A stretch of DNA of 64,000 bases from a virus: positions 1 to 64,000 of IMG/VR virus record IMGVR_UViG_3300007734_000755. One strand, given 5' to 3'. The notes beneath the pieces are model-generated. The model made no database searches. It saw nothing but the letters and a program-made list of their open reading frames with translations, and had not been told where the DNA came from. This document shows positions 11,690-30,414 of the stretch, piece after piece (position 1 is the stretch's first letter; every line of letters starts with the position of its first letter). A program made the translations under genes and the position numbers.

Positions 11690-11765
11690 TGGTTCTACAA
11701 GGGAGAGTTGAACTCCCATTTCCCCGCTACAATGCGAGGGTTCTAACCCATTGAACTATTGTAGA
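11690..11765 (-). ncRNA. tRNA-like RNA with 6-nt anticodon loop and encoded CCA
   Basis: perfect acceptor TCTACAA/TTGTAGA, D and T arms intact, CTCGC-ATTGTA-GCGGG. Confidence 0.75.
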
Positions 11766-23893: not shown

Positions 23894-24391
23894 TTATCTT
23901 TTCCCACCCTGGATTACTCTAAAATTTCTTCGTCGAGCTTCCGGAGTCAAATTCTTCTTTGGCTGTTCGGTTTCTTTTAGCTCACCTTGATCTGTGACGA
24001 TTTGATTCTTGGCATCTCCAATTGCATAGACCGCACTCCAAGGGATAACACACCGGAAAGGCCTTCCTCTAAAGGAGAGGGTTGCGACTACCTGCTTATC
24101 ATCGAATTCGAAATCGGCTATATTGTATCGATAAGAGAAAGATAACACAAGAGATTGTTGATTCTTACAATCGTCGGGAACACAAACTCCGTCAACTCTA
24201 GCATCGAAATGCAGATGCGCTATTCCTTCTCTTAGGAAGAACTCAAAAAGCTTTCGCTTCTCAAGGTTGGTTGCATCTGTATCTTCCACTGAGTGGGTTT
24301 CCATCCCCGCTAAAATAGCGTTAAGCCTCGAGTAAGTAACAAGACCTAGAAAATTTGCTAATTTCTCAAATATTTCCTTAAGATTTCTCAT
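23894..24391 (-). CDS. sspB: SspB-like ClpXP adaptor
   Basis: HFDARVDGVCVP...LVLSFS...ATLSFRGRPFRCVIPWSAVYAI core and C-terminal FRVIQGGK tail. Confidence 0.8.
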   Translation of the reverse strand: MRNLKEIFEKLANFLGLVTYSRLNAILAGMETHSVEDTDATNLEKRKLFEFFLREGIAHLHFDARVDGVCVPDDCKNQQSLVLSFSYRYNIADFEFDDKQVVATLSFRGRPFRCVIPWSAVYAIGDAKNQIVTDQGELKETEQPKKNLTPEARRRNFRVIQGGKR

Positions 24392-24950
24392 TTTTCTCTC
24401 CGAGAGAAGCGATTAATTCCTCAAAAGTTCTTGGCCTAAAATCTCTTACATCAACTCCAACATTGATAAACCTTTTTCTAGCACAAAAGGCATCGTGTTT
24501 TTCCTTGTGGTCACTTCTATCGTCTGCCGGGATAACATCCCCGACATTCTTTTCCGCCCAGGCATCGTGAACGTGGCCACAAAACACAAAATCAGTTTCG
24601 CTATTAGCGTGTGATGGATTGTGGACAAGTTCAATACTTTTTCCACCAATCTCTAAAATCTTGTTGGGCAATACAGTTTCAAACGATTCAAGACACTTCT
24701 TGTGGTCGTGATTTCCTCTAATAAGGATTAGAGTCCCGTTAAGCCTAGATAGGATTCCCGAAATCTTTGTTCTATCTCCCATAGCAAAATCACCAAGGTG
24801 ATAAACTGTATCCTCTGGCGAGACAATTTCATTCCAATTCTTAATTAGAATCTCGTTCATGTGACTGATTGAGTCAAAGGGACGCTTACAATATACAATG
24901 ATATTGTCGTGGTTGAAGTGGGTATCGCTTGTGAAGAATGTCTTGCTCAT
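24378..24950 (-). CDS. calcineurin-like metallophosphoesterase
   Basis: SDTHFNH, LGDF, GNHD, GHVH, INVGVD. Confidence 0.9.
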   Translation of the reverse strand: MSKTFFTSDTHFNHDNIIVYCKRPFDSISHMNEILIKNWNEIVSPEDTVYHLGDFAMGDRTKISGILSRLNGTLILIRGNHDHKKCLESFETVLPNKILEIGGKSIELVHNPSHANSETDFVFCGHVHDAWAEKNVGDVIPADDRSDHKEKHDAFCARKRFINVGVDVRDFRPRTFEELIASLGEKNEKS

Positions 24951-25109: not shown

Positions 25110-25138
25110 ATAATAACACTATTTCCTGGCGCTGTCAA
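25110..25138 (-). promoter_or_regulatory. sigma70-type promoter
   Basis: TTGACA-17-TATTAT. Confidence 0.55.
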
Positions 25139-25475
25139 CCAGCACAATAAGTCTGTTTTTTAGATCCTGAAGCTCCTTCAACCCAAAGGTTCCTGGGTTT
25201 CCCTCGCTACCCTCTGCTCTGTCTAGAATTTCATTAAGAGCCTTTACTGTTGAAAGGACTCCGGCATCATTTCCTCTCCACCAAGCCGCATGAGCAAAAT
25301 CGGTTCCATCGTAAAAAGGATCGTCATCAAGACGGGCGCAACTGCGCTCCGCGCATAGCTTTTTGCTGCTCCACGAATCGCAATGATGACAGAAAAAATC
25401 ACTGCTTCTAAGTTCAGTATCACGAGTTTCCTTCCCACAGACATCACACACACAAATATTTATTGAATCTTTCAT
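25119..25475 (-). CDS. Cys-rich hypothetical protein
   Basis: two CxxC plus DGTDFAHAAWWRG motif. Confidence 0.65.
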   Translation of the reverse strand: MKDSINICVCDVCGKETRDTELRSSDFFCHHCDSWSSKKLCAERSCARLDDDPFYDGTDFAHAAWWRGNDAGVLSTVKALNEILDRAEGSEGNPGTFGLKELQDLKNRLIVLVDSARK

Positions 25476-25500
25476 TTTTTTTCCCGTTCATTATTAATAA

Positions 25501-25794
25501 GAGAGAAACATTGTGCTGTTACGCCAAAATGTCGGGTAGCCTTCGGTCACAAGTGACTTTCTCTGACACGGCAAGCCCTGGTTAATTCCCGGGTTCTTAC
25601 TGCCTCTCAGCGGATAATATCCGTCGTCTCGACCCGTCAAGTCTGTCCATTAACTAATGGAGTTAGCAAACAAATAAGGTCTTTCATACAGCCTCAAGAA
25701 ACACTTGTTATCCAACTGTATTACTATTCAAAACGGATTCTGGAACATACTCATTATAGGATGGCTGCCTCTAAGCCCACCTCTTGGTTCTCTC
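25501..25794 (-). ncRNA. structured RNA containing a split 23S rRNA L11-binding domain (H43/H44) mimic
   Basis: CCAAGAGGTGGGCTTAGAGGCAGCCATCCTATAATGAGT (25787-25749) and GCGTAACAGCAC (25524-25513); terminal stem GAGAGAAC/GTTTCTCTC. Confidence 0.8.
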
Positions 25795-25795
25795 G

Positions 25796-26253
25796 TTAAT
25801 TTAAAGAAACCACCAGTTGTTGCTGTCGTCTGGATTCTTCATGGTTAACCTTGTCCTGCTCCGCCGCCCACGCGGCGAGCACTGCTTGTTGCAGTTCGCG
25901 CAGAAGTGCCCTATCGCGTGGTGGGTACGGGATACGCCCGACATCAACACCCCAAAAGTCGTGCAACTCCATCATTTCGCGACTGTACCAATGCCACCGC
26001 AGACCAGCCGCTCTAGCCCTCTGCTCCAGTGACACCGTGCAGTCGCAGGGGTTGTGCCAGCAGACGCCGCAGACCGTGCCGCCGCCAGTCGATCCAGCAG
26101 GGCAAGCACCGTCGCGGGTGAGGCCACACCCAGATACCTACAGTCGGTGATGTGATCATCACCACCCTGAATTAAGCGGCGAAAGTCGCGCCACGGCAAA
26201 CGGTTGGCGTTCGCCGCCTGCGCCAAGCGGCGCAGTTCTTCAGTATTAACCAT
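25796..26253 (-). CDS. GC-rich pair of ORFs; 25972..26253 is Ead/Ea22-like
   Basis: EELRRLAQAA...ASPATVLALLDRL motif; abrupt rise in GC content. Confidence 0.6.
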
Positions 26254-27528: not shown

Positions 27529-28257
27529 CTAAATCTCGATAATTAAATTATCCTCAAATTCTTTATTCAAGATATAATTTTGATAACCATATGGATTACA
27601 GACAATTCTTGTATTTCCAAGAAGATAATCTCTGCTAGAGTGGGTATGTCCGTGACACCACAGAGAGGGTTTCTTTTCAAGAATTGTCTTCTCCATGTTA
27701 CAAACATAATAACAGTTTAACGCGCTCTTAATGAATTCTTGAGGCATATGTCTGTCTGATGGGAGATGGTGGGAGATAACAATATCTCCATCTTGAATAT
27801 CCTTCTTAAAGAAGGAAATGGCCATTCTGTTCCACCTGTAGACTTCATCCTTAAAGTTCCCCTCGATAACAGTGAAATCATTTAACAGCCTTCTTAAGAC
27901 TCTACTTTCTGCCGTATCTCTAAACCACATTGTGGAACCAAGGAATCTCTTACCGCCTATCTCGGCAATACTATTGTGAAGCCAGTGCAGGTTTGGAAGT
28001 TCTCTAGAAATATCGTCTCGAATCTTTGATAGAGATAAGAAATCTATACCGTACAGTTCATGATTCCCATGAACATAAACCACATCTCGAAATTTCTTAC
28101 ACAGAATTCTTAATACCGAGCTAAGATATGGCGAGGTTCCTAGGTCTCCTGGAATAACAAGAACATCAATCCCCGCGGGGTCTTGACTTTCAGCCCATTT
28201 TTTTCCATGGTCTTTGTGAAATTCAACATGAATATCACTAACAACTTTAATTTTCAT
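27529..28257 (-). CDS. calcineurin-like metallophosphoesterase
   Basis: SDIHVEF, PGDL, GNHELY, HHLP, HGHTH, CNPYGY. Confidence 0.9.
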   Translation of the reverse strand: MKIKVVSDIHVEFHKDHGKKWAESQDPAGIDVLVIPGDLGTSPYLSSVLRILCKKFRDVVYVHGNHELYGIDFLSLSKIRDDISRELPNLHWLHNSIAEIGGKRFLGSTMWFRDTAESRVLRRLLNDFTVIEGNFKDEVYRWNRMAISFFKKDIQDGDIVISHHLPSDRHMPQEFIKSALNCYYVCNMEKTILEKKPSLWCHGHTHSSRDYLLGNTRIVCNPYGYQNYILNKEFEDNLIIEI

Positions 28258-29118: not shown

Positions 29119-30414
29119 TTAGTGAGACTCCTCTAAATCTACGTAATCCGCATTATCCTTGGCCATTCCTTCCATAACCTTAAAAGCAAAGCTCTTTGAT
29201 TTTAGAACATATGGACCAGGATATCCCTCTCCTCTAATACAAACACCCTCTCTGATGTGGCGTTGGTCAATGGTAGATGACCCGTCAGTTACAGATTCAA
29301 CAAGCTCTCTCAACTTATCTTCGTCACCATCATAAATGAATGAATCGTAAACCTCAGGAACATGCTTAATTCCAAGTTCCGAACAACGCTTCTTAACGCC
29401 TTCCCAAGAAAGGTCAACGCAGAATCCGTCCTCATTTAGGTGAGCAATTCTGTAGACAAAAACATCTGACTGTCCGTCGCTGCAACCATAGGAATAGTTC
29501 ATCTTATTCCCGTAGGCTCGCTGAAACTGCTTGTCCTTCATCGACTTTGGATCGCCGGGTGGCATAACAGGAGTTCCATCCTTAACCCAGCCAACTACCT
29601 CAAAGAACAGCATTTCATACTTATGAAGTTTCCCCTCTAAGTCTTTGACGGCCTTGAACCTAAACGTTTCATCTCCGTAATAACTTTGACGGCTATCCTC
29701 AATAGAGCGAAGAGTAATATTTCTGGTTCCTACAATATGTCCCCACTTCTTTTCTGGTCTTAGACCAATCTTCTGGCTAAACCATCCCCAACTCCACTTG
29801 GGGTAAGTGTATTTTTCCTCAACAAAGGCAAATCTTTGAGAAGTACCATGTAATTTCTCAGTAATAGAGACCAACGAACCCTTCTTCAGCTTCCAGACAC
29901 TATTTCTAAAGATGTCTGTATCAAAGTGCTTAGGAAATGCGAGAATTTCTCTCTTCATAAGTTCATTTTGCTTCTTCTTATTTTCTTTTCCTGCGGCTCT
30001 TTGGGTCGCCTGCGTTACATACTTATTACAAATTGCAATGCCGTTTAGAACCTCAAACTTATCGTGCTCCTTCAGCTTAGAAAGATCCGCTCCGGTAAAT
30101 TCAAGATTTGATAGTGGACACCAAAACCCATCAGATTTAACTCCTCGGAATTTCTGGGCACGGACTCTACGATTCTCCTCAAAGAAGCCGCCCTTAGTTT
30201 CCCCGGTTAGGGGATCCTTATATCGAACAAGATCGTTTGCTGTTGCAAACTCCACGCTTAGCTGACCATCAGTTTCAAAGAAAACTCCGAGGTCTCCCTC
30301 AAGGATTTTTCTCGAAACAACAACGGTGTTACCAACAACATTTCCCGAGGAAATATGATCCGACTTGGGAATAGCTTCAACGCTCTTGATTCTTGCTACG
30401 ATTGCACTATACAT
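29119..30414 (-). CDS. RNA ligase (Rnl2/DRB0094-like, N-terminal OB-like domain)
   Basis: TEKLHGTS motif I, FFEVVG, VFVYRI, REGVCI, LKSKS. Confidence 0.85.
   Translation of the reverse strand: MYSAIVARIKSVEAIPKSDHISSGNVVGNTVVVSRKILEGDLGVFFETDGQLSVEFATANDLVRYKDPLTGETKGGFFEENRRVRAQKFRGVKSDGFWCPLSNLEFTGADLSKLKEHDKFEVLNGIAICNKYVTQATQRAAGKENKKKQNELMKREILAFPKHFDTDIFRNSVWKLKKGSLVSITEKLHGTSQRFAFVEEKYTYPKWSWGWFSQKIGLRPEKKWGHIVGTRNITLRSIEDSRQSYYGDETFRFKAVKDLEGKLHKYEMLFFEVVGWVKDGTPVMPPGDPKSMKDKQFQRAYGNKMNYSYGCSDGQSDVFVYRIAHLNEDGFCVDLSWEGVKKRCSELGIKHVPEVYDSFIYDGDEDKLRELVESVTDGSSTIDQRHIREGVCIRGEGYPGPYVLKSKSFAFKVMEGMAKDNADYVDLEESH

Follow-up and report, generated by a model that had tools for sequence, protein, structure and literature searches.

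A phage-borne RNA family resembling the uL11-binding GTPase-associated centre of 23S rRNA

In bacterial 23S rRNA, the GTPase-associated centre is made up of the tip of H42 together with H43 and H44 (Escherichia coli nt 1051-1108), the 58-nt fragment bound by uL11 and thiostrepton. A1067 and A1095, the adenines at the tips of its two loops, are characteristic of contact with thiostrepton and factors. Imitation of rRNA outside the ribosome is familiar from mRNA leaders, where it allows ribosomal proteins to regulate operons, and the L10, L1 and S8 operators are of this type. These autoregulatory leaders are cis-acting, cellular, located upstream of ribosomal-protein genes and only loose mimics of the rRNA site, and we know of none that imitates the uL11 site. 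A second comparison is with the long-known small, stable RNAs encoded in phage tRNA clusters, T4 rnaC and rnaD, and with tRNA-like decoys, the bacterial Y RNAs.

Here, we describe an RNA element from an uncultured freshwater phage that likewise reproduces an rRNA protein-binding site outside the ribosome. In contrast to the autoregulatory leaders, this viral element is found among tRNA genes and small ORFs, and it copies an entire folded domain almost exactly. With the RNAs of the second comparison it shares the phage-tRNA setting, the imitation of a translation component and a presumed release by tRNA-processing enzymes, but there is no relation in sequence or structure; T4 rnaC and rnaD were tried as relatives and rejected (at best 4.9 bits, E 1.5, against the family model). 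Among the closest systems is the 23S centre itself, with which the element has in common the secondary structure and the tertiary core (U1060-A1088, G1071, C1072, A1073, A1084/85 and G1093/A1098). Unlike the 23S centre, the element is phage-encoded and free-standing, a closing helix of variable sequence replaces H42, and an arm is inserted between nt 1090 and 1091 (E. coli 23S numbering is used throughout) and followed by a UUUG linker.

The window, by which we mean the whole 64,000-nt stretch analysed, makes up the first 64 kb of an IMG/VR virus record of 114.8 kb with an estimated completeness of 62 %, and its DNA is present in viral, riverine and lake-water metagenomes, with no RNA data set among the public runs listed for it. 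The element occupies 294 bases at 25501-25794 on the minus strand. This region had been singled out in a sequence-only reading as a phage non-coding RNA carrying a split mimic of the L11-binding domain, and the minus-strand sequence given there agrees letter for letter with ours. The parts of the element are as follows, in the 5' to 3' direction of the RNA.

25784-25794, minus strand: closing helix substituting for H42, 5' strand (counterpart of 23S nt 1045-1055), pairing with 25501-25511
25794-25749, minus strand: 5' block, comprising the 5' closing strand, H43, the 1082-1086 hairpin and GAGU (direct reading)
25758-25782, minus strand: copy of H43 (nt 1057-1081) with the A1067 loop (Rfam LSU local match and alignment to model R1, below)
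25753-25757, minus strand: 1082-1086 mini-hairpin, A-UAA-U (a covarying pair in the family, A-U in the window)
25749-25752, minus strand: GAGU (nt 1087-1090), in which G1087 pairs with C1102 and U1090 with A1101
25529-25748, minus strand: 220-nt variable arm between nt 1090 and 1091, closed by AUGUU/GACAU
25570-25606, minus strand: conserved arm module, GAGGCAG-UAAGAA-hairpin (AAUUAA loop)-CUUGCC, near-identical in L102 and L253
25525-25528, minus strand: UUUG linker from the arm to G1091, not found in rRNA and missed in the sequence-only reading
25512-25524, minus strand: top hairpin of H44, GC-GUAACA-GC (nt 1091-1100, which include A1095), followed by A1101, C1102 and A1103 (R1 alignment)
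25524-25501, minus strand: GCGUAACAGCACA and the remaining 3' closing strand (direct reading)
25501-25511, minus strand: closing helix, 3' strand (counterpart of nt 1104-1114), pairing with 25784-25794

The 11-nt 5' closing strand is followed directly by a block matching 23S rRNA nt 1056-1090. Within GAGU, A1088 is the tertiary partner of U1060, and the terminal nucleotides of the arm, A25748 and U25529, are paired. In the closing helix, 9 of 11 pairs form in the window; the mismatches are A.A at 1055-1104, seen in the window copy alone among 148 members, and C.U at 1052-1107. Both flanks are A/U-rich single strands. The window has a single occurrence of an 18-nt H43 core; shuffles, searched with up to three mismatches allowed, give an expectation of 0.08. 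A contig from a second study covers 25200-25829 with zero differences from the window; the junctions of the element are real because this independent contig is identical across them, and a chimera with host rDNA, which would have undermined the original proposal, is ruled out.

For comparison with rRNA, nt 1051-1108 of E. coli rrlH were fetched and found to be identical to the sequence given in the sequence-only reading. A recount confirmed 30 identities in the 40 positions of the first block, the second block has 11 of 13, and the three compensatory pairs proposed previously (G1058-C1080, A1082-U1086 and U1090-A1101) are all present. Position 1101 is A in the element, where it pairs with U1090, and U in both 23S sequences examined and in the Rfam consensus. 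Two local matches to the Rfam LSU_rRNA_bacteria model had been predicted; one was found, on the 5' block (25732-25785, model positions 1095-1146; 20.8 bits, E 2.6e-4 in 601 nt searched), and none on the 13-nt 3' block. Of the first 37 aligned positions here, we count 32 that agree with the bacterial consensus. The element is not a bacterial 23S rRNA in the sense of Rfam RF02541, as 20.8 bits compares with a gathering threshold of 50 bits and only 52 of 2925 model positions are covered. At gathering thresholds, Rfam found only tRNAs in the whole window. The reported absence of rRNA from the flanks was borne out, and holds for the whole window and the whole 114.8-kb record.

Further members were gathered by pattern scans of viral contigs, anchored first on the 5' H43 core and then on the 3' block. 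The 18-nt H43 core was found in more than 118 viral contigs. Among the matches listed, only one is contiguous rRNA (L055) and only one lacks an insert (L012), and in nearly all of the others the 5' block leads into a variable insert, which is followed by a conserved 3' block, UUUG-GCGUAAYAGCACAC. The 3' pattern was found in only 44 stretches in 185,579 species-representative genomes, and 27 of these 44 cellular-genome loci hold complete elements (28 in total, with two at one locus), often adjoining tRNA genes. In all, at least 178 distinct complete members were identified, at least 149 in viral contigs, 28 in contigs of cellular-genome assemblies and one in the window, with a median length of approximately 180 nt excluding flanks. 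Homologues that conserve both halves around a variable insert, on which the earlier proposal depended, are thus numerous. As more than 118 viral contigs stand against 44 stretches in 185,579 species genomes, this large RNA family is phage-borne, and the window element belongs to it.

Carriers among cultured phages include Pseudomonas phages pf16, Astolliot, Milchi and UNO-G1W1, Serratia phage BF, Erwinia phage pEa_SNUABM_12 and its relatives, Xanthomonas phages XacN1, XbC2 and XaC1, Cronobacter phage GAP32, Pectobacterium phage CBB, Yersinia phage fHe-Yen9-04, Aeromonas phage 4_4572 and a Vibrio phage. In these genomes, the stretch is either unannotated or lies beneath a 'hypothetical protein' call. 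A blastn search of isolate phages with the whole element gave no match at E 1e-5, and these relatives were retrieved only when the short conserved halves were used as query. No such family is present in Rfam 15 or described in the literature searched by full text. The sequence-only reading likewise knew of no described family of this kind, and we consider the family to be hitherto undescribed.

Some loci depart from the usual arrangement. The insert-less member, L012:3707-3779, is approximately 70 nt long, scores 35.6 bits against R1 and solves 1087-1090/1101-1102 differently (CAAC ... GAUC). Two copies are found in tandem in L053:5122-5711, and two copies each are present in L203 (1117-1236 and 2172-2365) and L224 (3993-4347 and 5201-5389). 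The cellular-genome contigs with an element are labelled as Clostridia, Bacteroidota and other groups. They include complete elements in L232, L234 and L249, from bins assigned to Saccharibacteria, a Thermoplasmatales archaeon and Parcubacteria, respectively; in these three cases, phage contigs were probably binned into MAGs by mistake.

A covariance model built from homologues, suggested earlier as a check, was made from 30 short phage members with the window sequence excluded. The secondary structure of the GTPase-associated centre, the closing helix and the base of the insert were written onto the alignment to give model R1. The window matches R1 over the full model length (25500-25794; 73.7 bits, E 3.5e-18), and this element is the only match in the window and in the 114.8-kb record. 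The corresponding scores are 91.8 bits for pf16 and 81.3 bits for Serratia BF. In the window, 25749-25782 aligns to the 5' half of R1 with high posterior probability, the 3' half at 25512-25528 includes UUUG, the GC-GUAAYA-GC hairpin, A1101 and C1102, the insertion is exactly at 1090|1091 with its end nucleotides paired, and the closing helix is represented by the 9 of 11 pairs described above.

In the 30-member alignment, 84.9 % of cells are paired compared with 62.1 % in shuffles, and the covariation score is 0.583 compared with 0.167 (0 of 500 shuffles as high). The covariation signal collapses when partners are slid by 1-3 columns. For 94 model-aligned matches, mainly 3'-anchored loci, the equivalent values are 87.9 % versus 62.7 % for pairing and 0.512 versus 0.132 for covariation, again with 0 of 500 shuffles as high. 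An independent, anchor-based analysis of pairs in 148 members, performed without the covariance model, gave the highest mutual information for 1058-1080, the first and last nucleotides of the insert, the closing-helix pairs, 1082-1086 and 1057-1081; the top pairs are exactly those predicted. The pair types in these 148 members were UA (67), GC (46), AU (22) and CG (8) at 1058-1080, and UA (67), CG (51) and AU (19) at 1082-1086. At 1057-1081, AU and CG are found in the family. G1087-C1102 is present in 147 and U1090-A1101 in 143 of the 148, the first and last nucleotides of the insert pair in all 148 (GC, AU, UA or CG), and the closing-helix columns covary with many pair types across the family. 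The compensatory differences had been taken as a sign of selection on structure rather than of a decaying rRNA scrap, and covariation on every variable pair, together with a covarying closing helix, supports that interpretation.

From these alignments, we conclude that the ends of the element fold as a self-closed copy of the uL11-binding domain, consisting of H43, the 1082-1086 hairpin and H44. Where the arm departs there is a three-strand junction, with two strands joined without linker and the third with four nucleotides, and we infer that this geometry lets the two parts of H44 stay stacked while the arm branches off.

Conservation was assessed by reading each half in the set found via the other half, which limits ascertainment bias. 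Invariant or near-invariant positions are G1059, U1060, G1063, U1066, G1071, C1072, A1073, A1077, A1084, A1085, G1087 and A1088 in the 5' half, and G1093, U1094 and A1098 in the 3' half. GAGU was found in 69/69 of the 3'-anchored members passing the spacing filter, a filter that itself fixes G1087 and admits only A/G, A/G and U/C at 1088-1090. In the 5'-anchored set, the UUUG linker is conserved at 83, 87, 82 and 81 of 89 for U, U, U and G, respectively, and A1101 is present in 87/89. The window copy carries every family-invariant nucleotide. It also has both A1067 and A1095, so the loops were correctly described as retained in this copy, and both are variable across the family: position 1067 is A in 68/87 (78 %), G in 16, C in 2 and U in 1, and position 1095 is A in 79/89 (89 %), with 1096 and 1097 varying freely. 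This differs from rRNA, where the Rfam consensus has both adenines in upper case.

The interface for the C-terminal domain of uL11 comprises nt 1058-1060, 1062-1065, 1075-1083 and 1088 (PMC1802607), and in the phage family these nucleotides are either conserved or covary as pairs. The relaxed state of A1067 and A1095 fits a putative binding of the folded core by the uL11 C-terminal domain. Because neither adenine is invariant, readings that need thiostrepton-like or factor-like contacts at these positions are weakened. We note that the conserved core alone cannot separate uL11 binding from the need of another ligand for the same fold.

The genomic setting of the family is dominated by tRNA genes. 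A tRNA gene lies within 200 nt of 86 of the 178 members and within 1 kb of 107 (60 %); in every one of these 107, the element and that tRNA gene share a strand. The pf16 copy fills the interval that separates tRNA-Asn from tRNA-Pro. A conserved neighbouring protein was not found, the largest cluster of neighbours accounting for 8 of the 178 loci. In the window, a possible ORF of 79 aa stops 2 nt before the element begins, and 25 nt beyond the end of the element is the ATG of an ORF of 118 aa (25119-25475); Pfam gave no match for either. The element adjoins neither a sigma-70-like promoter nor an intrinsic terminator, and it is part of a minus-strand stretch of 26 kb that includes 15 tRNA genes. 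The following genes are also located there.

29119-30414, minus strand: RNA ligase (domain match, PF09414 and PHA02142 OB domain)
27529-28257 and 24378-24950, minus strand: two calcineurin-like phosphoesterases, among the tRNA genes
23894-24391, minus strand: SspB-like ORF (PF04386, E 1e-7), 1.1 kb downstream of the element

The RNA ligase and the two phosphoesterases among the tRNA genes resemble an RNA-repair set. SspB is an adaptor that hands ssrA-tagged proteins to ClpXP. With its tRNA genes, ligase, phosphoesterases and SspB-like protein, the minus-strand region looks like one devoted to upkeep of translation, a reading given as context rather than as evidence. No uL11 gene was found in the phage record, and no viral contigs were found to be syntenic via the neighbouring RNA ligase.

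The reading that we favour, to which we give slightly better than even chances on the sequence evidence above, is that the element is a trans-acting, off-ribosome mimic of the GTPase-associated centre, released from a longer transcript and with host uL11 as its putative ligand. The lack of a promoter or terminator flanking the window copy counts against this reading, and the discrete RNA that it predicts would probably be cut at the A/U-rich flanks from a long minus-strand transcript that includes the 15 tRNA genes. Once released, the RNA would act in trans, away from ribosomes, imitating the rRNA site. Action in trans, without an adjacent phage-encoded partner, is suggested by the co-orientation with tRNA genes, the absence of a constant neighbouring protein and the absence of a uL11 gene. 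The likeliest direct ligand would be host uL11, whose C-terminal domain would recognize the folded core, since the core and the surface for this domain are kept while the tips that face factors and antibiotics drift. The two closing-helix mismatches in the window copy count against this reading.

Two consequences of uL11 binding can be envisaged. RelA activation needs uL11, and uL11 is among the more exchangeable ribosomal proteins. In the first option, uL11 would be withdrawn from ribosomes, and uL11-dependent processes such as the activation of RelA would be blunted. In the second, a uL11-RNA particle would be displayed and would lure agents that target the site where factors bind the ribosome. 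This second option is plausible because a toxin, Tre23, that ADP-ribosylates H44 at nt 1095-1098 exists (PMC8661411) and because some members of the family add a sarcin-ricin hairpin. More specifically, the element may be a portable, uL11-loaded mimic of the factor-docking site that baits ribosome-directed immune effectors or stringent-response sensors off ribosomes, a suggestion that we make tentatively and regard as possible rather than probable. If it were true, this would be RNA-based counter-defence without a described precedent.

If the favoured reading is correct, hundreds of phages with very different hosts (the isolates named above come from hosts that include Pseudomonas, Serratia, Erwinia, Xanthomonas, Aeromonas, Yersinia, Cronobacter and Vibrio) carry a copy of one of the ribosome's functional centres in the form of an independent molecule. 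This would represent a new class of viral takeover or counter-defence of translation, beside phage tRNAs and RNA-repair enzymes, and would supply a natural tool for finding cell factors that recognize the isolated uL11 domain. The family would also provide natural variants of a classic model of RNA folding, in which substitutions of A1067 and A1095 are tolerated and 1090|1091 permits insertions, and the cultured carriers make it directly testable.

In a related explanation, the RNA, alone or together with uL11, would act as a decoy that diverts enzymes or sensors directed at the factor-binding site; these would be effectors of the host or of a competitor that modify or cut H43/H44, or sensors such as RelA or a translational GTPase, and uL11 binding would be incidental. 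The existence of an H44-modifying toxin, Tre23, and the neighbourhood of the window element, where the RNA ligase, two metallophosphoesterases, SspB-like protein and 15 tRNA genes resemble upkeep of the translation apparatus, are in its favour. So are the arms of five members (L140, L196, L040, L081 and L091), which contain a hairpin of the type found in the sarcin-ricin loop (H95 of 23S rRNA; AGUACGAGAGGA-type), that is, the other half of the factor site. These hairpins (AGUAC-GNRA-type-GGA) have covarying flanking stems and are located approximately 200-250 nt into long arms. With one mismatch allowed, the pattern was observed twice against approximately 0.07 expected. Some members thus copy both rRNA elements of the factor-binding site, the GTPase-associated centre and the sarcin-ricin hairpin, and the five members point to the whole factor-binding site rather than to uL11 alone. 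However, the hairpin is absent from approximately 97 % of members, including the window member, where the best match has 3/12 mismatches and lacks the AGUA/GA bulged-G motif; ten arms reach exactly this level, which is near background. The bases that effectors and factors touch, A1067 and A1095-1097, are moreover the least conserved part of the copy, and we know of no anti-phage system that targets H43/H44. We therefore consider the decoy explanation rather unlikely, without dismissing it.

The inserted arms bear on a further alternative, that the rRNA copy is only a scaffold or handle that stabilizes the RNA or recruits uL11 as a chaperone, with the activity residing in the variable arm. Recurrent arm modules favour it. 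A 3'-proximal module, CACC-CCN[GNRA]NGG-UAAGG, is found in approximately 20-40 members (e.g. L011, L028, L100 and L120), UGAUGU/GCGAAA defines another recurrent type, and the sarcin-ricin hairpins are a third example. The arm module of the window is itself conserved in two other phages: this rare arm type has three members, the window, L102 (the same as L254) and L253, among which the stem of the module hairpin changes between C-G, G-C and U.G. Compared with the other family loci, a 23-nt stretch of the arm is common to L102 only, and a stricter arm pattern found L102 only in viral contigs, a metagenome scan adding L253. Against this alternative, arms range from approximately 50 to 360 nt and are of several unrelated types, always at 1090|1091 and rejoined to H44 by the conserved UUUG; at least one member, L012, has no arm at all, and the copy of the GTPase-associated centre alone is universal. 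The window arm, which had been described as hairpin-rich, in fact folds no better than shuffled sequence (z=-0.01). The same is true of the minimum-free-energy fold of the whole element (z -0.43), and such folds are uninformative on the structure of the arm because they are no better than shuffles. A role as scaffold is thus improbable in our view, and trans-acting mimicry of the uL11 site remains the reading that we prefer.

The arm module of the window has no Rfam or rRNA match, the whole arm has no Rfam match, and comparison with the E. coli rRNA operon yielded only chance matches of 8-9 nt. One of these is GCUAACUCC of the 16S 530 region (E 3.3), a stretch that L102 and L253 do not conserve. 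A group I intron in an rRNA exon (RF00028) was rejected, with no match at E <= 10, arms of unrelated types and lengths, and no rRNA gene. In approximately 20-40 members (e.g. L011, L028, L100 and L120), CGAAG is frequent directly after the first helix of the arm.

A cis-acting role could take the form of processing or stability punctuation in tRNA or mRNA precursors, or of a uL11-responsive operator for the ORF at 25119-25475. The tight fit of the element between two co-oriented ORFs, with no promoter or terminator of its own, would suit such a role, as would the many members that abut tRNA genes and the known control of ribosomal-protein operons through rRNA mimicry in leaders. Downstream neighbours, however, vary among members and in many cases are tRNAs and not ORFs; an exact rRNA tertiary core would be superfluous in a plain processing signal; and there is no ribosomal-protein gene downstream in the window. 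We judge a cis-acting role to be very improbable. An autoregulatory leader of a ribosomal-protein operon was considered separately and rejected: the nearby ORFs (two upstream candidates and three downstream) have no Pfam match or are phosphoesterase-like or SspB-like, and across the family the neighbours are mostly tRNAs and not ribosomal-protein genes.

Finally, the local similarity to 23S rRNA and an insert within H44 that recalls rRNA introns might suggest that the element is what remains of host rDNA taken up by the phage, perhaps with an intron, or that it is a chimera of the assembly. Both are refuted here by the lack of other rRNA in the window or record, the identical independent contig from another study, the covariation and private closing helix, the family-specific A1101 and UUUG, the lack of a group I intron match and the pairing of the insert ends in 148/148.

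Two minor observations were made in passing. One of the cellular-genome matches, L207 (NZ_AP027616.1), a 2.9-kb 'plasmid' in an E. coli assembly, is 23S rRNA whose H43-H44 differs from rrlH at several positions, and it is probably a contaminant or a misassembled circle from another organism. In the window, 11690-11765 on the minus strand was reported by ARAGORN as 'tRNA-???', with an irregular anticodon loop and the anticodon 'tg', and scores 49.2 bits against the Rfam tRNA model.
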